Shown: positions 13,433-56,467 of the stretch, piece after piece | Layout: each line of letters begins with the position of its first letter | How positions within the stretch are numbered: the stretch's first letter is position 1 | From: an uncultured Chromatiaceae bacterium | Lineage (GTDB): Bacteria > Pseudomonadota > Gammaproteobacteria > Steroidobacterales > GCA-2729495 | Assembly (NCBI GenBank): GCA_964613615.1 | Contig: CAZTIB010000133.1 | Span: 4,046-68,045 of the forward strand | Direction: 5' to 3' | DNA: 64,000 nucleotides | The notes under the pieces: generated by a model | Database searches by the model: none | Told to the model about the DNA's origin: nothing | The model's input: only the letters and a program-made list of their open reading frames with translations | Made by a program: the position numbers and the translations under genes

Positions 13433-14026
13433 TCAGTAAATACGGAACCCGCCGTGGCGGCTGCGGCTGCGGAAATCGAACCAGCGCCAGGCGAGGAAGA
13501 CCCCGAACAGCAGCGCGCCGGTGACCCCGGTCCACAGCCAGGACCGTGGCACGCCGCTGCGTAGAGCGGCCAGATCGTCGCGCAGGCCGCTATTTTCTGC
13601 ATTCAGGCGAGCCACTTCATCATTGGCGGCCTGGGCCTGCTCGGCGGCTTCCCGCGCCGCAGTTTCCAGCCGCTGGCGTTCCTTGGCTCCATCCCTGGCC
13701 TGCAGCGTTTCGAGCTCGGCCGCCAGCCGGTCCCGCTCGGCTTCCACACCCGCAATGCGTCTGAGAGCCGGCTCCTCGGTTTGCAGGAAGGACCCGCGGA
13801 CCCAGCCCGAGCGCTGATCTTCCAGCTGCACCAGCGTCAATGCGCCGTCCCGCTCGAGCAATTCGGCCCGGTCGCCGCTTTTCAGGAACGCAAAGGCCCG
13901 GCCGCTGGTGTCGCGCGTCAGGTGCACCCCCAGGCGCAGCTCATCGGTCACGTACACGGTCTCCGCGGTCAGCGGGAGGCCGATCAGCAGCAGGATGATA
14001 AACGGAATAGTTCGCGTATAACTCAT
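13433..14026 (-). CDS. SH3-domain protein with coiled coil and C-terminal TM (TIGR04211/YgiM-like)
   Basis: Signal peptide, a bacterial SH3-like block (YVTDELRLGVHLTRD...GWVRGSFL), a coiled-coil segment and a C-terminal TM. Its start overlaps the dacB stop (ATGA). Confidence 0.7.
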   Translation of the reverse strand: MSYTRTIPFIILLLIGLPLTAETVYVTDELRLGVHLTRDTSGRAFAFLKSGDRAELLERDGALTLVQLEDQRSGWVRGSFLQTEEPALRRIAGVEAERDRLAAELETLQARDGAKERQRLETAAREAAEQAQAANDEVARLNAENSGLRDDLAALRSGVPRSWLWTGVTGALLFGVFLAWRWFDFRSRSRHGGFRIY

Positions 14027-15474
14027 TGTGCATAAACCCAGCGCAACAAAGCGGTGTGAGCTTCTTCACCCGGACCCCGATGGGCGTCCGGGTGATTCTG
14101 CATGGCGACCACGACAAATTCCCGGCCCGACGCCGCGCGCAGATAACCGGCCATGGCAAATACGCCGTTCAGCCGGCCGGTCTTGATGTGCATCTGTCCG
14201 GTGAGCTGGTCGTCACGAAACCGCCGCCGCATTGTGCCATCGAGGCCGGCGAGGGCCAGGGACGACTCGAACTCCGACCGGTAAGGGCTGTCGTGACCGG
14301 CCAGCAGCAGGCGGGCAAGATTTCGGGTGGATATCTGTGTGTCGCGGGACAGCCCGGCACCGTTGTCGAGACGCAGCTCAGGAAAATCGAGACCCCGCTC
14401 GGCCAGTGCGGCAGCCGCTGCGTCACGGGCCTTGTCCACGGTGCCAGGCGCGCCGTAACGCTCGGCGCCCATGGTCAGGAACACCTGCCGGCTCATTACG
14501 TTGTTGCTCCACTTGTTCACGCGGCGAATCACTTCAGATACGGGCGGCGAGTCGAAGTCGTAAAACGTCTCCCAGGCCTCGTCCACCATGGCGCTACGGC
14601 CTGCACCGCCGATTGTGCCGCCACTTTCCTCCCAAAGACTGCGAACTACGCCATAGTTGAACTCGCGCGCACTCATGACCGACCGCGACAGCCGGTATTC
14701 CGGGCAATCGCGGCCGAAGCGCCCGGAGAAAGTCACCACCCCGCCAACATTGGCCTCGCCGGGCGCGACCCGGATGCCGCCCTGGTAGCCGCCGCAACGG
14801 CCATCGCGTATCTGCAACTGGTTGCGGATCTCGAGATTGGCGGGCGCCGGGTCAGCGATGATCTGCACGCTCTGTTCATCCGGATCAGGCCTGAAGATGA
14901 AATTGACGGCGCGAAAATTTATCAGGAAGGCTTGGGGCGTCACGTTGTAAACGCGATAGGGCTGGCCGTCGAAGGCGCCGGAATCCTCGGGCGCCACCAC
15001 AAAAAAGCTGTTGTCGATGACCAGGTCGCCGTCGATGTCCCGCAGGCCACGCTGGCGCAGGCCTCGCAACAACAACCAGACTCGCTCGGTAACCAGGAAA
15101 GGGTCACCGTAGCCTTTCAGGTACAGGTCGCCGTCCAGCCTTCCGTCCTTCAGCTGGCCGTCCAGGTAAACCTCGGTGCGCCAGGTGTAGGCCGGCCCGA
15201 GGTCCTCCAGCGCGAGAAAAGTTGTCAGCAATTTGATGGTAGATGCGGGATTGCGCGCCACGTCGGCGTTGACCGCGAGTAAGGGTGAGTCGACGTCTAC
15301 GTCCTGGACCCAGACGCTGTAGCTGCCCGAATCCATCTGGTAGGCGTCAAGCACCCTCTTTACCCGCGACGGCAGCTCGTGCCGCGTCTCCGCAGCAGCC
15401 AGGCCACCGCTCAACAGCGGCACGATGATTGCGGCCGTCAGCACGGGCGCGAGAATTGATCGAATTACGTTCAC
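14023..15474 (-). CDS. dacB: D-alanyl-D-alanine carboxypeptidase/endopeptidase (PBP4)
   Basis: PBP4 blocks: PASTIKLLT (SxxK), WSNNVMSRQ (SxN) and IKTGRL (KTG). GTG at 15474 chosen because the upstream ORF part overlaps the activator gene. Confidence 0.85.
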   Translation of the reverse strand: MNVIRSILAPVLTAAIIVPLLSGGLAAAETRHELPSRVKRVLDAYQMDSGSYSVWVQDVDVDSPLLAVNADVARNPASTIKLLTTFLALEDLGPAYTWRTEVYLDGQLKDGRLDGDLYLKGYGDPFLVTERVWLLLRGLRQRGLRDIDGDLVIDNSFFVVAPEDSGAFDGQPYRVYNVTPQAFLINFRAVNFIFRPDPDEQSVQIIADPAPANLEIRNQLQIRDGRCGGYQGGIRVAPGEANVGGVVTFSGRFGRDCPEYRLSRSVMSAREFNYGVVRSLWEESGGTIGGAGRSAMVDEAWETFYDFDSPPVSEVIRRVNKWSNNVMSRQVFLTMGAERYGAPGTVDKARDAAAAALAERGLDFPELRLDNGAGLSRDTQISTRNLARLLLAGHDSPYRSEFESSLALAGLDGTMRRRFRDDQLTGQMHIKTGRLNGVFAMAGYLRAASGREFVVVAMQNHPDAHRGPGEEAHTALLRWVYAQ

Positions 15475-47652: not shown

Positions 47653-48549
47653 TCAGGCGGCGGGCTTCCTGAACTTCAGCGTGAAGCGGTCGCTCTCGCC
47701 GATGGCCAGGTACTTGTCGCGGTCTTCGTCCTTCTTGCGCAGTGTGGGCGGTAGCGTCCAGACACCGGTATCGTAGTCCTTGGTATCTGCCGGGTTCGCA
47801 TTGACCTCCGATTTCCCCTCCAGCTCGAAGCCCGCGGCTTCCGCCAGCTGAATTGCATAGGCCTCGTTCACGTAGCCGGAGGCCGCTTTCGGGTCCTGTT
47901 CCACATCCGCATTACCGCGGTGTTCCACCACGCCGAGCACGCCGCCCGGTTTCAGTATCTTGTAGAACTGCGCGAACATGTCTTCGGTGTAGCCGCGCGG
48001 CAGCCAGTTATGAATGTTGCGAAAGGTCACGATCATGTCCACGGACGCTGCCGGCGCAAAGTCCCACTTCTCCGGTGGCATCAGCACGCCCATTTCGACG
48101 TTGCCATAGAGGTCTGGTCGTGCCACCAGTTTGTCGGTGAAACCCTTGACCCCGTTACGCACAAATTCCCGTTCGTCTTCCGGGTCCCAGTGCGCGGCGA
48201 TATATTTGCCCTGGTCATTCACGTACGGGGCGATGACTTCGGTGTACCAGCCACCGCTGGGCCAGATTTCCACCACCGTCATGTCCGGTTCCAGGCCGAA
48301 GAACTCCAGCGTTTCCACCGGGTGACGGGAAACGTTACGAGCGCGGTTTTCTTCGCTGCGATGCTCGCCGGCCGCTATGTCCCTCAGCCTCGGCCCGGCG
48401 ACTTCAGGCTCGGCGACAATCACCGGTGCGGCCGGTGGCGCAGCGGTTTCGGCGGGGGCACTCGCTTGCTCCGGTCCACCGCAAGCAGCAACGGCGACGG
48501 TCAGAAAAACGGCAAAGAACGGACGGCGAAGGCCCATGGGTTTCTCCAC
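47653..48549 (-). CDS. Class I SAM-dependent methyltransferase with lipoprotein-type signal peptide
   Basis: FFAVFLTVAVAACGG lipobox and a methyltransferase fold (VVEIWPSGGWYTEV, LKPGGVLGVVEH). Confidence 0.8.
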   Translation of the reverse strand: MEKPMGLRRPFFAVFLTVAVAACGGPEQASAPAETAAPPAAPVIVAEPEVAGPRLRDIAAGEHRSEENRARNVSRHPVETLEFFGLEPDMTVVEIWPSGGWYTEVIAPYVNDQGKYIAAHWDPEDEREFVRNGVKGFTDKLVARPDLYGNVEMGVLMPPEKWDFAPAASVDMIVTFRNIHNWLPRGYTEDMFAQFYKILKPGGVLGVVEHRGNADVEQDPKAASGYVNEAYAIQLAEAAGFELEGKSEVNANPADTKDYDTGVWTLPPTLRKKDEDRDKYLAIGESDRFTLKFRKPAA

Positions 48550-48619
48550 TGGTAGAGGTGTTTTTGAGAGGGGCCAGACTGTAGAACATCATCCGTGGCA
48601 TTGCCACGGGCAGCCGGGC

Positions 48620-49273
48620 TCAGGCGTAGGCGGCGCTGTGAATGTGGCTCAGCTTGGCCGGCTGGGACAGGCGATAGAAATCGCGCAGTTCCTGCAGCAT
48701 TTCGCCGCCGGGCAACCCGCACGCATACCGGGCTTCCAGGCTGCGACAATACCAGCCGGCAAAACGCGCAGCGTACGAGTAGCGCTCGTGTTCTGCTGCC
48801 GACAGCGTGGCGTGAAAACGCGGTGATTCGAACAGCACGGCGAAGAGCGTAGCCTCGAGTTCCGGGCGCGCCTGATGGGTCGCGAGGGTGCGCGCACCCA
48901 TGTACTTGTCGATTTCTGCCTGCAGTTCGAGTTCCAGCAGCGTGACCCGGCGGTCTGCGCTGGCATTCCAGGTCAGGTAGTTGAAGTGACTGAGCCCTTC
49001 AACCACCTTGCAGAAATCCTCGAAATTGTCGGCATCCAGGTATTCGAAAGGATCCCGCGAGGCCAGGCGGTCGAGGAGTTCGGCGTCAAGGTATAACGCC
49101 AGGTGCAGTTCGTCCTTGTCTTCCGCAACCAGCAGCTTTTCATCGGTTTCGCGGCTACCCTCGCCCTCCAGGGCCCTGGCCTGGCGAGCATCCGTGATCA
49201 GGTAGTCGCGAACGTCGGCCGGCGGCTCGATTCGGTAGAGCTGGGCTAGAAGTGTCTGCAGATTGCGGAGCAT
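48620..49273 (-). CDS. Hypothetical protein (acidic, helical)
   Basis: ATG at 49273 lies 10 nt after the stop of the upstream gene. Protein-like composition; no family recognised. Confidence 0.6.
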   Translation of the reverse strand: MLRNLQTLLAQLYRIEPPADVRDYLITDARQARALEGEGSRETDEKLLVAEDKDELHLALYLDAELLDRLASRDPFEYLDADNFEDFCKVVEGLSHFNYLTWNASADRRVTLLELELQAEIDKYMGARTLATHQARPELEATLFAVLFESPRFHATLSAAEHERYSYAARFAGWYCRSLEARYACGLPGGEMLQELRDFYRLSQPAKLSHIHSAAYA

Positions 49274-49283
49274 GATGGGCTCA

Positions 49284-49925
49284 TCAATGCTCGTGCCGGT
49301 TGCGCGCTGATTCCAGCGGTTCGATACCCAGCTCGCGAAGCAAGCGCGCAGCGCGCGGGCTGCCGGTGCGCACCCACGCTTCATACCAGCGCAACGCGTC
49401 TTCCACATCGTGGCCGCGCGCCGAATCACGAACCTCGTTGAGCACATCCACCATGTTGGTGAACTTGGCGCCGAGTTCCTCGAATACGTCGCTCATCACC
49501 CGGCCGCGCAAGGTGCCTTTTATGCTGCCTGCCAATGTGCTGTACGCGCCACCGCCCATCTTCACGTAGTAGCCCACATCCACCGGCGCATGCCGCAGGA
49601 AGTCGTCGAAAAAGCCGGCTACGAACAGCGCCACGTCACCGACGCGCTGCAGGGCGAAGTGATGCTCTTCCTCCGTGCGGGCTTCAACCGCGTCGGCCAG
49701 CATGAGCGCCAGGGGCCGCAGCTCCGGCCCTTCCGGGCCTGCATCGTAGAAATCTTCGGAGCGTGCAAACAGTGTCAGGAGATTGACAACGTAGTGCGAA
49801 GCCTGGGTGTCGAGCACCACATGATTCGCAGCCATGGCTGCATCTACGGAGTCGCGGAAGAACTCCGTGAGGCTGGCGACGGGCTGGAGCCCGTCCGCTG
49901 TCGCGTAATCGGCGCTCATAGTCAT
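49284..49925 (-). CDS. Hypothetical protein
   Basis: 213-aa ORF with protein-like composition. No family recognised. Confidence 0.65.
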   Translation of the reverse strand: MTMSADYATADGLQPVASLTEFFRDSVDAAMAANHVVLDTQASHYVVNLLTLFARSEDFYDAGPEGPELRPLALMLADAVEARTEEEHHFALQRVGDVALFVAGFFDDFLRHAPVDVGYYVKMGGGAYSTLAGSIKGTLRGRVMSDVFEELGAKFTNMVDVLNEVRDSARGHDVEDALRWYEAWVRTGSPRAARLLRELGIEPLESARNRHEH

Positions 49926-50035
49926 TAACTTAATAACCTATTAGCGGCCGGTTCACGTGTGATCTGTGTCACGCAACCGATCATGCAACGACGGGCGACC
50001 ACAGGGCGGATATTACAGACGGCATGGGCTAGCGG

Positions 50036-50536
50036 TTAAGGCCGACACAGCAGGGCGTTCTCGCGCCGCGCCCGCTCAGCATCACTGTCGGCAATGGCTG
50101 CAACACGCTGCAACTGGGCGACATAGTGGGCCGGCAATCCGTGATGGGCGGCGCCGTGCAAGAGAAAATCCAGGTACCAGTTGAATGGCTGGAGGTCGTC
50201 AGCGATTGCTCCGGCCCGCGCCCGGTAGGAGAAAGCAGAAACATTCTCGCCGCTGACCGGGTGACATACCTGCAACTCCGTGCGCGCGTACCCCGGCCCT
50301 TCGATGGCATCCAGAACTGCCGCATGGGCAACGCTGACGGAGTAGATAACGCCCCAGACCTCAATGGCTGGCACGGGAACGATGTTGGCCTTGCCGGAAC
50401 CATCTGCGCCGCGTTTATGGAACAACAGCCCATGTTCCGGCAACCGGGCCACGCCCAGCGGCACGGCGGAATGAACGCGGGCGCGAAGGCGCCCGGTGTG
50501 CATGTTCGACCCGTAGGCGAAGTACAGCAGCGTCAT
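50036..50536 (-). CDS. Gamma-glutamylcyclotransferase (AIG2/GGCT-like) family protein
   Basis: N-terminal LYFAYGSNM motif and a conserved downstream Glu-containing core. Confidence 0.8.
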   Translation of the reverse strand: MTLLYFAYGSNMHTGRLRARVHSAVPLGVARLPEHGLLFHKRGADGSGKANIVPVPAIEVWGVIYSVSVAHAAVLDAIEGPGYARTELQVCHPVSGENVSAFSYRARAGAIADDLQPFNWYLDFLLHGAAHHGLPAHYVAQLQRVAAIADSDAERARRENALLCRP

Positions 50537-50551
50537 GCTGCTAACCCCGCG

Positions 50552-52075
50552 TCAGATCGCGACTGCCAGTGTCGGCTGCCAGCCAAGCTCGCGGACATCC
50601 GCTTCGCTGCCGTGCTGAATCACCCGGAAATGCAGAAACTCACCCGGGCGCCTTAGCGCGATACCGAACTCGATTTCCAGTTCGTCGCCGCGGATCCTGG
50701 GCGTGTGCAGAAACCAGCCTTCCCTGGCGCTGACACCCGCCAGCGCACCGTTAGCCTGCAACGCGTTGAGAAAAGCCTCAAGCTGGGCCCGCAAGTCAGC
50801 AATTCCGGAGGCCGCCTCACGGCGAAACAACATCCAGCGGCAGTTCTGCACCATGCCCGACACCACGAACAGCGCGGTGCGGCGCCAGCGCAGCGCGCAC
50901 CATTCCGGCGCCAGCCCGGAGCCGCGGGCCGTGGTCACGCCACCGTGCAGATCCACCCAACCCGGGGCCGCGGCGGTCAGGGGGTTCACACCGGCACGTA
51001 TCAGCGCCGAAATCTCTCTGGGTGAAAGCTCCAGGTGCGCGCGCCAGTGACAGCGCAGGCGCAACGGCGCAGACGCCGGCAGCGACCACGCGCCGTGGTC
51101 CTGATCCCGGGCTGCCAGGGCCCCGGCGAGGGCGCCCAGCACGCTGCTGTCTCCGGGCAACGGGAAACACGTCACCACGTTCGGACTCGCAAACTGGCCG
51201 CGTTGTCTGTCCGCGATCACGTCGCGGGCCAGCTGCCAGTGGCCGGGCGGCTCGACCAGCAGCAAGGCCTGGCGGCGGCGACAATAACGCTCGGCCGCGA
51301 AACGGGCCACCGGGCCGAGGCTCAGGCCGGGCGCGGGCGGCAGGATGCATAGCAGGTCCAGGCGCGCGATCTGCTCCAGCGCGTAGAGACCCGTGCTTTC
51401 TCGCGGCGAACCGATCAGGTCGTAGTCGGACAACATCTCCGCCGGCAGTCGCGTGCCGTCCGCATAGACGTAGTCGGGGTTCATCAACGCGCCGGGACCC
51501 ACCGTGGGGAGCGGACGCTGATGTGTGCCGTTATCGCGCAGGCGCACCAATGCAGAGCGCTGGAGGGCGTCGCCCACGTAGTCCGGATCGCTGGCGTGGG
51601 CAGACACCTCCTGATAAATCTCCTGCTCCACGACGGCTGCCTTGTTGCCGCCGTCGAGACGGTGCACCGTCAGGTTGAAGTGCGCGCCCGCGTCGGCGGG
51701 AATGCCATCGTAGTCAACAGACGCCCGCAGGTACTCCAGCGGCCCGGGGTGCAGTGCTTCCAACACGAACGTGCTACCGCTGGCGGGCAGGTGAATCTGG
51801 TTACGGCGCGAGGAATGGCAGACCCGGACGACAATGGCCATCGTGCCGCCGTTGCCGAAATAGCGCTCGAGATAATGCTGGAGACGACTGTCTTTATCAG
51901 GCGATCCGAAACGCTTCAGATATTCGGCGACACTGCGCACCGCCACCGGCATGTCCACTGGCCCGCGAGGCGCGGGACCAATGAAGGCGGCGACAGTTTC
52001 CCGGCCCAGCAACGTGGGAACGTCCGAGGACGCATCCTCAACTACCAATATACCGCTCGATGCAGTGTCCGACAT
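50552..52075 (-). CDS. Phage/contractile-injection tail sheath family protein (orphan)
   Basis: N-terminus is GILVVED..TVAAFIGPAPRGPVDMPVAVRSVAEYLKRFG...YFGNGGTMAIVVRV. C-terminus is GVNPLT..W..LRWRRTALFV..FLNALQANGALAG..EGWF..EIEFGIALRRPGEFLHFRVIQ. Both match sheath N- and C-terminal domain patterns as I remember them. Confidence 0.7.
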   Translation of the reverse strand: MSDTASSGILVVEDASSDVPTLLGRETVAAFIGPAPRGPVDMPVAVRSVAEYLKRFGSPDKDSRLQHYLERYFGNGGTMAIVVRVCHSSRRNQIHLPASGSTFVLEALHPGPLEYLRASVDYDGIPADAGAHFNLTVHRLDGGNKAAVVEQEIYQEVSAHASDPDYVGDALQRSALVRLRDNGTHQRPLPTVGPGALMNPDYVYADGTRLPAEMLSDYDLIGSPRESTGLYALEQIARLDLLCILPPAPGLSLGPVARFAAERYCRRRQALLLVEPPGHWQLARDVIADRQRGQFASPNVVTCFPLPGDSSVLGALAGALAARDQDHGAWSLPASAPLRLRCHWRAHLELSPREISALIRAGVNPLTAAAPGWVDLHGGVTTARGSGLAPEWCALRWRRTALFVVSGMVQNCRWMLFRREAASGIADLRAQLEAFLNALQANGALAGVSAREGWFLHTPRIRGDELEIEFGIALRRPGEFLHFRVIQHGSEADVRELGWQPTLAVAI

Positions 52076-52157
52076 TTCGGCCCACCGCCAACAACAACCC
52101 TGAGGAAATTCTAGCAGGCTAAGCGCCGCGGAGTGAGGATTCTCGCGAAGACATGCT

Positions 52158-53252
52158 TCAGTCGGAGGCGGTGTCGGCGACTTGTTCCACGGGATCGTGC
52201 AGGATCACATTCTCGACTCGCCGCGCCTGGGCCAGCGCCGCTGCAAGGCCATCATCACCGGCCAGTATCGACACGGGGAACCCGCGATGGTCCTCTGCAA
52301 TCACAACCAGCCGGGATTGATCGACATCAGCGGCGCCATTGGGCATCTCGCTGGCCCGGGTCGCCGCCCGCTGCTCGAGTGCAGCCAGCCAGTCGCGCTC
52401 GTCTTCGGCCAGCGCCGGATGGGCCTCGAGCAACAGGTCATTGCCGTTGCGTCCCAACAGCAGCGGCTGATTCACGATATTGACCGGCGTCCCCACGGGA
52501 ACCCGGTCGTAAAGGAATTCAATGTCTTCCGGGTAGAGCCGCACACAACCGTGGCTCACCCGCATGCCGACGCCGGCGGGCTTGTTCGTGCCGTGAATCA
52601 GGTAGCCCGGCAAACCCAGCTGCAGTACCCGGCTGCCCAGGGGATTGTCCGGGCCGGGCGGCACCTGGGCCGGCAGCGGGTCGCCCATCTCTGCATGTTC
52701 CCTGCGGATGGATGCCGGTACAAACCACACCGGGTCGCGGGTGCGCGCAACCACTGTCGTGGCCCCGGTCGGTGTCGCCCAGTCTTCCCGGCCGATGCCG
52801 ATGGGGTAAGTCTCCACCACCCTGGGTTCACCGTCGACGGCGGGCGGGTAGTAGAACAGGCGCTTCGCGGCAACGTTCAACACGATGCCTTCGCGCGGCG
52901 CGTCGGGCAGCACGAAACGGGTGGGCAGCACGACGGGCGTCCCCTCACCCAGCATCCACGGATCGACGCCCGGGTTCGCATCTCGCAACTCGTCAAAACC
53001 CAGGTCATAGGTGCGGGCAAATTCGACGAAGGTGTCTTCGGCACGGGCCAGCGCAATCTGCAACTCGCCCACCGTACCTTCACCGTCCACGAGCACGAAA
53101 CGATTCGCGTCCAGCGGCGGCTGCGGAGTGAACTCGACGCTTGGCGGCGCGCCAGCGCCCGCACTCTCCGGTGGCTTGAACACAGCGTCGACGAGGCTGC
53201 AGCCTGCCAGCAGGGTCACTGACGTCAGCAGTAAGGGCGCCCGGAAAGACAT
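52158..53252 (-). CDS. L,D-transpeptidase (YkuD domain) lipoprotein
   Basis: Lipobox LLAGCS and catalytic block IHGTNKPAGVGMRVSHGCVRLYPEDI. Confidence 0.85.
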   Translation of the reverse strand: MSFRAPLLLTSVTLLAGCSLVDAVFKPPESAGAGAPPSVEFTPQPPLDANRFVLVDGEGTVGELQIALARAEDTFVEFARTYDLGFDELRDANPGVDPWMLGEGTPVVLPTRFVLPDAPREGIVLNVAAKRLFYYPPAVDGEPRVVETYPIGIGREDWATPTGATTVVARTRDPVWFVPASIRREHAEMGDPLPAQVPPGPDNPLGSRVLQLGLPGYLIHGTNKPAGVGMRVSHGCVRLYPEDIEFLYDRVPVGTPVNIVNQPLLLGRNGNDLLLEAHPALAEDERDWLAALEQRAATRASEMPNGAADVDQSRLVVIAEDHRGFPVSILAGDDGLAAALAQARRVENVILHDPVEQVADTASD

Positions 53253-53256
53253 GCTG

Positions 53257-54021
53257 TCAGCGCCGGCAGGCCGGGCGCTTGCCTTCGGCCCGCGCTCCAT
53301 TGAACTCGTCGAGGGCCTCCGGCAGCTGGGCGATCAGGCCGGAGATGCGGGTGGTCGACGACGGGTGTGTGGACAGGAATTGCGGCGGCGACGCGCCGCC
53401 CTTGGCATCCATGTTTTTCCACAGCTGCACGCTGGCCCGCGGATCGAAACCGGCCTCCGCCATGAAGCGCAGACCGACGACATCGGCCTCACTTTCCGCG
53501 CGGCGGCCATAGGGCAGCGTAAGGCCGATCTGCGCCCCCATCGACAGCAGGTCGTAAGTGGTCTGGCCTCCGCCGAGCACCGCGGCACCCGCAACGACCG
53601 CGCCCTGCGTGGTGTACTGCCGGTTCACCTGCTCGTAAGAATGGCGCTCGGTCACATGGGCAACTTCGTGGCCGATCACCGCCGCGAGCTGGTCCTGGTT
53701 CTCCGCCACCTTCAGCAAGCCGGTGAACACCCCGATGTGGCCGCCGGGCAGCGCAAATGCGTTGACGGCCTCGTCGTCGAAAACCACGACTTCCCAGTCC
53801 AGGCTTGCGTAAGGCTCGTTCACCTCGGCAAGGATCGCGTCCGACACGCACTGCACATAGCCGCGCACGCGGGCATCGCGCGACTCCACCATCTGTGTGC
53901 GCATCTTCTGGAACTCGGCGTCCGACTGGATCTGGAGCTCGCGCTCACTGACGATGGGCACGGTGCACCCGCTGACCGCGAGTACGCTCAGCAACAGTCC
54001 AATGCGATATAGCCGAACCAT
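53257..54021 (-). CDS. M48-family zinc metallopeptidase lipoprotein
   Basis: Lipobox AVSGC, HEVAHV (HExxH) and a downstream E...D block. Confidence 0.85.
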   Translation of the reverse strand: MVRLYRIGLLLSVLAVSGCTVPIVSERELQIQSDAEFQKMRTQMVESRDARVRGYVQCVSDAILAEVNEPYASLDWEVVVFDDEAVNAFALPGGHIGVFTGLLKVAENQDQLAAVIGHEVAHVTERHSYEQVNRQYTTQGAVVAGAAVLGGGQTTYDLLSMGAQIGLTLPYGRRAESEADVVGLRFMAEAGFDPRASVQLWKNMDAKGGASPPQFLSTHPSSTTRISGLIAQLPEALDEFNGARAEGKRPACRR

Positions 54022-54075
54022 GGCACCTTCCGTATTCACAGTGAAAACCCGATTATAAATGCAAGCCGCTGCTGC

Positions 54076-55095
54076 TCAGCGAAACCACGTGCGGTCCCAG
54101 CGGGCACGCCCGAAAGCCTCGGCAGCCGCGTCCATCGCGTGCATGATGCGCTCCTGCAGGCTTTGTTTGCCCTTCCAGCGCACGCGGTATACGTCACCGT
54201 CCTGCACCGCGTTCAGCAGATAGTCGTCGCTCGCGCCCAGTTCATCGATCAGACCCAGTTCCAGGGCCCGGGTTCCGTACCAGTGCTCGCCGGTCGCGAC
54301 CTGGTCGATGTTCATGGCCGGCCGGTGCTCGGCTACCAGCTCCTTGAACAGGCGGTGCACCTCTTCCAGCTCTTCGCGAAGCTTTTCGCGGTCGGCCTCG
54401 GTGTTCGACCCGAACATGGTCACAGTGCGCTTGTACTGTCCGGCTGTGACTTCTTCCCACTCCACGCCGCGATCTTTCAGCGCGCGGTTGAAGTTGGGCA
54501 ATTGTGCCAACACACCGATAGAACCGATCACCGCAAAGGGCGCCGCAATCACGCGATCGGCGATGCAGGCCATCATGTAACCGCCGCTGGCCGCCACCTT
54601 GTCGACGATTGCCGTCAGCGGAATGCCCCGGCTCTTCAGCCGCTGCAGCTGCGAAGCGGCCAGGCCGTGCTCGTGCACCGCCCCGCCCGCATTCTCCAGC
54701 CTCAGCACCACTTCGTCATTGCCGGTGGCCACACTGACCACGGCGCTGATTTCCTCGCGCAGGTGGCTCACCGCAGTGGCGCGGATATCACCCTTGAAGT
54801 CGAGCACGAAGTAGCGCTTGCGGTGGTGATCGTCGCCCGCAGCCTTCTTTTCCTGCTTGCGCGCCTGCTTGTCGGCCTTTTCCTGCTTCTTGAACGCCGC
54901 CTTGCTCAGTGCGGCGCGGCGCACCGCGCGGCCAAGTTCCCGAAAGCGGTCGTTGAGCTTGTCCACCCGAATGCCGGTGGCAGACCCGCCGCGGCGCGAC
55001 GCGCCGGCAATCAGGGCCAGGGCCACGCCCAGGGCGGCCAGCAGCGTCACGGTCTTGGCCAGGAACAGTCCGTATTCGGCCAGCAGTTCCATCAT
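54076..55095 (-). CDS. sohB: Inner-membrane S49 peptidase SohB
   Basis: N-terminal TM, a Lys-rich linker and the S49 block [11 protein letters not shown]. Confidence 0.85.
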
Positions 55096-56102
55096 CCTGT
55101 TGTTCCGGTGGCAATGCCCAGGCCGGCATTGTTCCGTTCAAGCGCCTGCTCTGCACGATAGCTGGAACGCACCAGGGGCCCCGACACCACCTCGACGAAA
55201 CCCCGCTGCAAACCCAGCTCGCGGTAGCGCAGAAACTCCGCCGGGGTGACGAAGCGCTGCACCGGCAGGTGGTTCACGGTGGGCCGCAGGTATTGGCCGA
55301 AGGTGAGTATGTCCACGCCTGCGGCCCGCAGATCATCCATGGCCGTGAGGACTTCAGCCTCCGTCTCGCCAAGGCCCAGCATCAGGCTGCTCTTGGTCAA
55401 CAGGTCGGTGCGCACCGTCTTCGCCTCTCGCAGCACCGCCAGCGACTGGTCGTAGCCGGCGCGGGGATCGCGAACTTCGGGCGTCAGCCGACGCACCGTT
55501 TCCAGGTTGTGTGCGAACACGGCCAGCGGCGTGGAAGCCACGACGCGGACCGCGTCGACATTGCCGCGAAAGTCGGGCGTCAGGGCTTCTACGGCGGTGC
55601 CCGGGTTGCGCACCCTGATAGCTACTACGGCCGCGGCATAGTGCTCGGCGCCGCCATCGGCCAGATCGTCGCGATCCACCGACGTGAGCACCACGTAGCT
55701 CAGGCCCATGAGTTCCACCGAGCGTGCGGCCTGCTCCGGTTCTTCGGTATCCAGCCAGCCAGCCGGGTTGCCCGTGTCCACGGCGCAGAAGCGGCAGGCC
55801 CGGGTGCAGACACTGCCCATGAGCATCAGGGTGGCGGTACCGGCGTTCCAGCATTCGCCGATATTGGGACAAATGGACTCTTCGCACACCGTGCTGAGCT
55901 GGTGCTCGCGCACGTTGCGCCGCACGGTGTCGAAGCCAGCCCCCGTGGGCAGCTTCGCCCGCAGCCAGTCGGGCTTGCGCTGAACCGGGACATCTTCCCA
56001 GCCCCGGCGCCGGTTCACGCCGTTTTTTACCGCCGAGAAGCCCTTCCCGGTCTGGTACTTATCGCCGCTGCGGACGATGGGTATACCTTTGAAGTCGCTC
56101 AC
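55092..56102 (-). CDS. lipA: Lipoyl synthase
   Basis: [13 protein letters not shown] and radical-SAM [10 protein letters not shown] cluster motifs. GTG at 56102 gives about 336 aa. Stop overlaps the sohB start. Confidence 0.93.
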
Positions 56103-56269
56103 AAACTGTCCGGATGTCGTAGCACAGGGGCTATTCTCGCACGGGGGATTCCGGGGGTGAAAGCGGCGGTTGGCGGGCACCAGGGCTGCAGGCAAAAAAA
56201 CGCCCGGCACTAAGGCCGGGCAAGTACAGGGGGAAGCCTTTAGTCAGCCTTGCATCGACATCCTGTCAA

Positions 56270-56467
56270 TCAGTGGACGCGCGACCAGTTGAGTAATTCA
56301 ACGTCGTCTGCGTCCCGCTCAAAATTCTTCGCCAGCAGGGTCTCGATCTCGATCGGGTCCAGCACCTGGTTGGCCGGTGCGCTCACTTCGACCACACCGC
56401 TATACTCGTCCGCAAATCCGTCATCGGCGGAGCGCAACAGAAAACGGGTGTAGAACTTTTTGCGCAT
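56270..56467 (-). CDS. Hypothetical 65-aa acidic protein
   Basis: Protein-like ORF upstream of lipA. No family recognised, and it does not resemble YbeD. Confidence 0.45.
   Translation of the reverse strand: MRKKFYTRFLLRSADDGFADEYSGVVEVSAPANQVLDPIEIETLLAKNFERDADDVELLNWSRVH

Follow-up and report, generated by a model that had tools for sequence, protein, structure and literature searches.

A stand-alone sheath-family gene of uncultured Gammaproteobacteria, apart from injection-system genes in the loci examined

Results

A sheath homologue followed by a GGCT-like gene

This work concerns two adjacent minus-strand genes, at 50036-52075, in a 64,000-nt stretch of DNA from an uncultured Chromatiaceae bacterium (GenBank assembly GCA_964613615.1, contig CAZTIB010000133.1, positions 4,046 to 68,045). 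The whole stretch is referred to as the window, and coordinates are those of its forward strand. The core feature is a stand-alone sheath-family gene (50552..52075) encoding a 507-aa protein, recognised from its open reading frame (ORF), profile searches, structure prediction and comparison, and substitution ratios. It is followed by a gene (50036..50536) for a 166-aa protein resembling gamma-glutamylcyclotransferases (GGCT; AIG2-like). An original prediction, made from the letters of the sequence without database searches, had described this pair; the ORF list agrees exactly with its coordinates and with the gap of 15 nt between the sheath stop codon and the GGCT ATG, inside which lies a GGGG Shine-Dalgarno-like run. 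The GC content is also native-looking, as had been stated, at 0.65-0.68 here versus 0.61-0.69 in nearby DNA.

The 507-aa protein is a true three-domain sheath homologue, with similarity far above chance. Residues 3-449 match the PHROG family phrog_23 ('tail sheath') at 2.5e-19, and a phmmer comparison with PDB sequences aligned both the N-terminal and the C-terminal signature regions to solved sheaths (9ezm, 2.9e-18; 8bky, 7e-16). A family profile built from 101 member sequences matched the sheath of a Streptomyces contractile injection system (CIS; 8bky, 1.9e-51), 9ezm (1.3e-49) and Pvc2 (2.8e-22), with weaker matches to the Anabaena sheath (8e-22), T4 gp18 (1.3e-4) and the pyocin sheath (2.4e-4). 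An AlphaFold2 (AF2) monomer model of the protein has a mean predicted local distance difference test score (pLDDT) of 86.8 and a predicted template modelling score (pTM) of 0.87, and limits disorder to residues 1-20 and 501-507. A Foldseek search with this model yielded 96 PDB matches at E<=1e-3; all 50 of those listed are sheath-bearing entries, with template modelling (TM) scores of up to 0.72. The top match, 9ezm_A, is the contracted sheath of the Halogeometricum borinquense CIS (1.6e-23; TM 0.65/0.67; 21% identity over 527 columns). The prediction had recognised both sheath signature regions by eye and had proposed a structural comparison with sheath protomers; the profile searches uphold the former, and the comparison identifies a sheath fold.

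The Pfam check that had been proposed alongside gave a more equivocal result. The sheath model Phage_sheath_1C was matched, as the sole Pfam match of the protein, but at only 22.1 bits, under the cut-off of 26.9 bits. A search of NCBIfam with the 507-aa protein returned no match. Because of this combination, databases name most family members 'hypothetical protein' and only rarely 'phage tail sheath protein FI'. A family that scores below the Pfam threshold would be missed or miscounted in surveys of injection systems.

Search for injection-system partner genes

Two canonical CIS clusters, one on a Kitasatospora plasmid (L091) and one metagenomic (L092), supplied the 26 proteins used as phmmer queries. 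These were run against each ORF of 50 aa or more in the six-frame translations of the window and 90 related loci (1.36 Mb in total). The results on absent genes apply to the 64-kb window and to flanks of 8-10 kb around the family loci. Only the two sheath queries produced matches in this set. None of the five tube queries found a match there, nor did the baseplate and spike queries (gp25, baseplate J, gpV/VgrG, T4_baseplate) or those for Pvc16_N/DUF4255 and AAA ATPase genes. As a positive control, the same queries were run on 80 canonical-relative loci from metagenomes, where they detected the tube in 67 of 80 loci, T4_baseplate in 54, Pvc16_N in 36 and AAA in 32; the shortfall is mostly due to short contigs.

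Pfam annotation of the window and of the neighbour families likewise did not reveal baseplate or spike genes. The called genes of the window with Pfam matches are housekeeping only, and include EAL/GGDEF and HD-GYP signalling, TRAP and ammonium transport, PII, a sigma-54 activator, 2-oxoacid:ferredoxin oxidoreductase, an M16 peptidase, an ABC-2 transporter set and acyl-CoA synthetase. The annotation of a 98%-identical locus (L008) agrees, in that CIS partner genes were not found in it. Across 84 clustered loci, every recurrent neighbour family that Pfam can name is a housekeeping family; two genes described below (unkA and unkB) and some small ORFs are without a Pfam match.

The sheath gene is therefore an orphan in every locus examined. 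The earlier statement that the window holds no tube, baseplate, spike or ATPase gene of such a system is supported by all three approaches (Pfam, the L008 annotation and the 26-query search). The prediction had also allowed that the pair might be the edge of a complete CIS or prophage tail cluster in related genomes; this was never the case in the 90 related loci, and we rejected the idea that the family merely marks the edges of CIS clusters. In a PADLOC search, the sheath and GGCT proteins had no match at E<=0.1, and the two marginal, non-significant matches fell on neighbouring proteins only.

Distribution and selection

Protein searches uncovered a large family of 490-540 aa from gammaproteobacterial metagenome-assembled genomes (MAGs). 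In a scan of species-representative genomes, at least 598 stretches were matched, of which at least 512 were confirmed as relatives. The best 80 of these all derive from proteobacterial MAGs at 33-61% identity and represent 80 distinct loci in differently named genome records, labelled Gammaproteobacteria, Proteobacteria/Pseudomonadota, Chromatiales, Woeseiaceae or Steroidobacteraceae. In a library of representatives at 50% identity, 171 clusters score at or below 1e-30, and about 70 of them group with the window protein as a single clade of a rough neighbour-joining (NJ) tree. Complete chromosomes that contain the gene include OZ244979.1, OY970328.1 and CP070833.1. No relative was found when IMG/VR viral contigs were scanned with the family profile, and the family is therefore taken not to be viral.

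The sheath gene is under strong purifying selection. Between the window and L008, the encoded proteins are 98.6% identical and the ratio of non-synonymous to synonymous rates (dN/dS) is 0.039 (71 synonymous and 9 non-synonymous differences), which rules out the decay remnant that the prediction had considered. In the same comparison dN/dS is 0.042 for sohB, 0.040 for unkA, 0.26 for ykuD and 0.23 for the GGCT gene. There are 31 invariant columns across the 101 family sequences (40-86% identity), the ORF is intact at all 85 family loci examined, and gene order is conserved in more than 80 genomes, among relatives of 33-99% identity. The family appears to be a vertically inherited chromosomal gene.

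Ancestry of the family

Judging from related sequences, the family lies inside the extracellular CIS (eCIS)-type lineage. The NJ tree nests it within a grade of eCIS-type metagenome clusters that encode a sheath, a gp19 tube, T4_baseplate, Pvc16_N and AAA. Just outside the clade, the sequence P0326 (E 3.5e-39) heads a cluster of sheath, gp19 tube, T4_baseplate, Pvc16_N, AAA and CIS_tube genes. The closest non-orphan relative, P0303, is adjacent to the family in the tree and is flanked by two further sheath genes (L175, 2-3586). When compared with a canonical sheath, distant family members score 2.4e-91 and the window protein 3e-43; the window lineage is therefore a derived branch.

The L175 contig, of 3.6 kb, thus carries three tandem sheath paralogues, an arrangement reminiscent of Afp2-4 and Pvc2-4. 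The orphan family may have descended from one paralogue of a multi-sheath CIS.

Solitary sheath genes were also observed in other lineages, at L093 (10001-11578, in a Planctomycete-like context), L108 (1591-3096, beside a Ser/Thr kinase-FGE fusion) and L116 (9610-11169, between glmM and xseA). All three pass the Pfam sheath models; the canonical motif discussed in the next section is kept in L093 and L108 and is partly degenerate in L116 (RGVWAAAAG). Orphan sheath genes may be a wider phenomenon.

Family-specific features of the sheath protein

Three derived characters are common to the family: the RGVWKAPAG motif is lost, the C-terminus is extended, and the inserted domain is under strong conservation. 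The canonical motif, scored with the pattern [RHK]G[VIL]W[KTQ][AP][PA]A[GN], is present in 71 of 78 canonical-grade sheaths and in 0 of 85 family members; in the window protein its site falls within codons 311-350 (51026..51145, minus strand, as for the other segments given here) and reads 'HGAWSLPASAP'. The family-specific C-terminal extension occupies codons 489-507 ('...VRELGWQPTLAVAI'; 50555..50611). Beyond the column of window residue F480 (the PGEF/KPAEF motif), all family members continue for 25-102 residues (median 27), compared with 11-15 (median 14) after KPAEF in canonical sheaths. AF2 predicts an extra strand at 491-500 that folds back on the last core strand.

The inserted domain is a beta-rich segment (codons 91-212; 51440..51805) whose conservation is unusual for a sheath. 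Its mean conservation is 0.61, versus 0.53-0.71 in other core segments, and E114, R117, D121, N134, R139 and Q151 are invariant in the family, whereas the matching region is poorly conserved in canonical relatives.

Other parts of the protein are more canonical. The wall-forming motifs (FFxNGG..VVRV, YCxxRxALLLxDPP, GVNxL and EW..L..RR) are all retained. The N-terminal arm and linker (codons 1-25; 52001..52075), in which 'SGILVVED' corresponds to canonical 'PGVYVEE', align to the canonical arm free of gaps. The arm has a pLDDT of 33-38 in the monomer model, yet in the family its residues V11, E13, I21 and R25 each reach a conservation of 90% or more. As to the arms involved in strand exchange, sequence comparison thus indicates that the N-terminal motif and linker length are kept and that the C-terminus is remodelled and at least 11 residues longer.

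Genomic context of the sheath gene

The sheath and GGCT genes belong to a run of nine minus-strand genes oriented in one direction, from lipA to a lipoprotein gene (56210..47653). The run begins with lipA, for radical-SAM (S-adenosylmethionine) LipA (56210..55092), and sohB, for an S49 peptidase (55095..54076), both named from the annotation of L008. These are followed by a gene for an M48 peptidase (54039..53257; Pfam) and by ykuD (52158..53300), which encodes a 380-aa YkuD L,D-transpeptidase lipoprotein (Pfam, 4.8e-22) and whose stop lies 82 nt from the sheath start. Downstream of the GGCT gene come unkA (213 aa; 49925..49284) and unkB (217 aa; 49273..48620), both without a Pfam, PHROG or NCBIfam match, and a gene for a 298-aa lipoprotein-like protein (48549..47653; lipobox AACGG) with weak methyltransferase similarity (SAM-methyltransferase, E about 3e-3). 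The envelope housekeeping character that the prediction had ascribed to the neighbours is confirmed for YkuD, M48, S49/SohB and LipA by Pfam and the L008 annotation. Promoters and terminators predicted over 47.0-56.6 kb were as numerous as in shuffled controls and are uninformative on operon limits.

The most persistent neighbour is ykuD, which occurs co-directionally within 3.5 kb upstream in 58 of the 66 loci with room for it. This link extends to relatives of 33-36% identity, where lipA, sohB and the M48 gene are replaced by peptidase, LemA and TPM genes. A gene for a rhomboid, an M1 peptidase, a Rieske protein or a pyridoxal phosphate (PLP) enzyme separates ykuD from the sheath gene in about 20 loci. 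The rhomboid, found at this place in 10 loci, raised the possibility of a rhombosortase/GlyGly-CTERM link, which we rejected, as the C-terminal extension is too short and is without a transmembrane segment.

The identification of the downstream gene as having a GGCT fold stands, with both Pfam models above cut-off (AIG2_2, 1.2e-12, 48.5 bits, cut-off 27; GGACT, 2.6e-9, 38.1 bits, cut-off 22.8). The sequence, which retains an N-terminal YGSN motif and an LDAIEG glutamate, is that of a putative GGCT/GGACT (AIG2-like) cyclotransferase for gamma-glutamyl substrates. Such a gene follows the sheath gene at 11-300 nt in 12 of 76 loci with room, in three separate clades (L002/8/9/11; L025/32/34; L058-60/71/86), so that the linkage is facultative within the family. 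Between the window and L008 the GGCT proteins are 85.5% identical, whereas the sheath proteins are 98.6% identical. The suggestion of a two-gene sheath-GGCT module finds only partial support, and the pair is not what is conserved as a unit: the 15-nt pairing is real and recurs in three clades, but it is confined to 12 of 76 loci and the GGCT gene evolves faster. We regard the GGCT gene as a facultative downstream partner that is probably co-transcribed with the sheath gene. As a separate observation, the genes flanking GGCT are 96-99% identical between the window and L008, and dS is 0.39 in GGCT versus 0.07-0.29 elsewhere, which resembles a local hot spot or a recombination patch.

At loci of distant family members (L058, L059, L064, L066, L067, L070, L074, L075, L082, L086 and L088), a fused hydantoinase A/B 5-oxoprolinase of about 1220 aa and a DUF4442 protein are encoded a few genes from the sheath gene. 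Three of these loci (L064, L066 and L067) have the GGCT gene directly beside the 5-oxoprolinase gene, about 7 kb from the sheath gene. In the gamma-glutamyl cycle, GGCT makes 5-oxoproline and oxoprolinase consumes it. Because of this adjacency and of the product-substrate relation, the GGCT gene may belong with the oxoprolinase rather than with the sheath, and the arrangement suggests an ancestral gamma-glutamyl-cycle gene group.

The prediction had further asked whether the two genes downstream of GGCT form part of a conserved unit, and this did not hold. The unkA and unkB genes are 10 nt apart (window 48620-49925) and are constrained (dN/dS 0.04-0.06), but the unkA family has 4585 database matches, the pair occurs in L089 with no sheath gene within 8 kb, and unkA and unkB accompany the sheath gene only in the window-type context. 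We rejected them as sheath partners, given the far larger family and the sheath-free occurrence in L089. Profiles of unkA and unkB found no match in the PDB; the AF2 model of unkA is all-alpha (pLDDT 83), and Foldseek found no match for it (best E 0.99).

Discussion

Comparison with known sheaths

By family profile, the closest solved relative is Cis2, the sheath of the cytoplasmic CIS of Streptomyces coelicolor (PDB 8bky, 8bl4; PMC10066040). The window protein and Cis2 share a length of about 510-540 aa, a three-domain layout, the spacing of N-terminal arm and linker, the wall-forming motifs and a cytoplasmic nature. Genes for a tube, baseplate, spike and DUF4255/ATPase accompany that of Cis2, an arrangement also seen in the related Kitasatospora cluster, and Cis2 contracts around a tube; the window protein, unlike Cis2, has no such partners nearby, is without RGVWKAPAG and has a longer C-terminus. 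The best structural match is the CIS/T6SS (type VI secretion system) sheath of H. borinquense (PDB 9ezm), which is part of a complete contact-dependent killing machine (PMC11566945), whereas the window gene is solitary. Outside the family, the sequences most closely related to it, at about 30-33% identity, come from eCIS-type metagenome clusters (such as L092 and L095-L174), and the tube gene detected in 67 of 80 of those loci was found in 0 of 90 family loci.

A possible tube-free assembly

Together, these observations suggest that the sheath gene probably serves a new, non-injection role, and they fit the earlier proposal of a domesticated sheath-fold protein with a new role, in that the gene is an orphan in a housekeeping envelope neighbourhood. 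More specifically, we tentatively propose that a sheath of CIS ancestry was exapted as a stand-alone chromosomal gene whose product has kept its capacity for self-assembly and, by means of its terminal arms, forms a cytoplasmic polymer without a tube. We put the probability of this reading at roughly 45%. Encapsulins, T6SS components and tailocins are examples of phage structural proteins that were exapted and, as is general among these, can still assemble; for this reason self-assembly is favoured here as well. It would also probably be retained because the wall core, N-terminal arm and linker are kept at unchanged spacing, such that inter-subunit strand exchange most likely persists. The wall of a sheath is built from domains 1 and 2, with domain 3 exposed at the surface, and contraction is under the control of the N-terminal linker (PMC10066040).

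Since neither tube nor baseplate would be there to keep it extended, the product would be a static, contracted-type, 'polysheath'-like tubule, ring or oligomer in the cytoplasm, and the conserved inserted domain on its outside could act as a docking site for partners. Rhapidosome-like tubules, seen in some bacteria, represent such tube-less assembly of a sheath in the contracted form. T4 gp18 offers a parallel, since the recombinant protein polymerises alone into polysheaths, contracted-type tubules that self-assemble without a tube (PMC9230969). T4 polysheaths, however, are a by-product of a phage protein, whereas assembly here would be the selected function of a host gene. Expression together with the upstream envelope genes (for the L,D-transpeptidase, M48 peptidase and SohB) and, in the window lineage, with GGCT is probable, and such co-expression would point to a role in envelope or stress physiology rather than in injection. 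It is a good deal more speculative, and in our view rather doubtful, that the polymer constitutes a new phage-derived cytoskeletal or scaffold element, free of tube and baseplate, inherited vertically in hundreds of Gammaproteobacteria (including Woeseiaceae- and Steroidobacteraceae-labelled genomes) and functionally tied to the L,D-transpeptidase/envelope-protease locus.

Several points weigh against a polymer tied to this locus. We infer polymerisation, and the AF2 model is that of a monomer only. The family is without the most conserved canonical motif, RGVWKAPAG, and the predicted strand 491-500, lying on the last core strand, may cap the handshake site in cis. Conservation of the N-terminal arm is 0.53, below that of the core, and the arm is degenerate in some distant members. 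The prophage sheaths 3HXL and 3LML are monomeric when alone (PMC9230969). The absence of CIS genes is established for the 64-kb window and for flanks of 8-10 kb. Finally, the L,D-transpeptidase gene may be a neighbour through inherited gene order and have no functional tie to the sheath gene, and about 20 loci have intervening genes between the two.

Alternative explanations

The main rival of a polymer is an adaptor that does not polymerise, that is, a soluble monomer or small oligomer in which the inserted domain has become a binding or catalytic module and the extension fills the protein's own handshake site. The missing motif in all 85 members, the universal C-terminal extension, the predicted pairing of strand 491-500 with the last core strand, the unusual conservation of the inserted domain and the precedent of sheaths that are monomeric alone (PMC9230969) would all be in keeping with this. 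Such a protein would have no need of the N-terminal arm and linker, which nevertheless keep their canonical length and conserved residues; the wall-forming motifs are all retained as well. Other exapted phage structural proteins, moreover, still assemble. We consider such an adaptor possible but somewhat unlikely. It is improbable that the sheath belongs to a complete CIS whose remaining genes lie elsewhere in the genome. The arms and wall core are retained, and our search covered loci rather than whole genomes, but the 1.36 Mb of sequence from the window and the 90 family loci holds no CIS genes, the tube accompanies the sheath in 67 of 80 canonical loci, and the family has lost a motif that 71 of 78 canonical sheaths keep. 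The best 80 genome matches are also 80 distinct loci in differently named records, and we know of no precedent for a split CIS locus that is stable across hundreds of species.

An obligate sheath-GGCT module, with GGCT acting upon the sheath protein or jointly with it, gamma-glutamyl isopeptide links being one conceivable target, has in its favour the 15-nt gap with its ribosome-binding-like site and the recurrence of the same GGCT orthologue at 11-300 nt in three well-separated clades. We would give it only an outside chance, as GGCT is absent from 64 of 76 loci with room, is under weaker constraint (dN/dS 0.23; 85.5% identity) and, in L064, L066 and L067, lies about 7 kb away beside the 1220-aa 5-oxoprolinase, with which it would logically pair in metabolism. 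The literature searches did not turn up a GGCT gene described as a CIS component, and we know of none. An anti-phage decoy or sensor, binding or poisoning the tail proteins of infecting myophages, could be imagined for a phage-derived protein, and the GGCT family also occurs in phages (phrog_2520); it is nevertheless very improbable, since PADLOC gave no match, the locus is core-genome and syntenic rather than a variable defence island, and the phage sheaths among the listed Foldseek matches share only 9-15% identity with the protein. The chance that the gene is a decaying leftover of a prophage tail, tailocin or CIS cluster is close to negligible. Isolated sheath genes do occur sporadically elsewhere (L093, L108, L116), but the conservation data refute this origin: dN/dS is 0.039, the ORF is intact at all 85 loci, gene order is conserved among relatives of 33-99% identity, the GC content is native, and mobile-element genes were not found nearby by Pfam annotation of the window.

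Significance

To our knowledge, sheath proteins are known only within injection or ejection machines. Our literature searches found them described only as parts of such machines, which require a tube and baseplate, and did not find a stand-alone sheath family described. A long-lived family, orphan at all loci examined and under strong selection, indicates that the sheath fold can be kept for another purpose, in parallel with the capsid proteins that became encapsulins. It also offers a lead, open to experiment, on a protein that is still an unannotated 'hypothetical protein' across a large group of uncultured Gammaproteobacteria from sediment and soil. Should the protein polymerise, it would represent a new bacterial filament system and a minimal sheath for studies of tube-free assembly.

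Other observations on the window

Rfam and transfer RNA scans of the whole 64-kb window returned no match. A region of about 1.25 kb (14026-15282) contains a sole long ORF of 418 aa (plus strand) with weak codon bias (GC at third codon positions, 0.67) and without a Pfam match; a convincing gene was not found there. Immediately upstream of lipA lies a 65-aa ORF (56270-56467, minus strand) with no Pfam match on record. Many related loci have a counterpart in this place (families F18/F31), and genes of 65 aa are also called in L001, L002, L007 and L008. The 298-aa lipoprotein-like protein at the end of the gene run would combine, oddly, a methyltransferase-like fold with a lipoprotein signal in front of it. 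It is conserved downstream in 33 related loci, and its counterpart in L090 is a weak DUF938 match.

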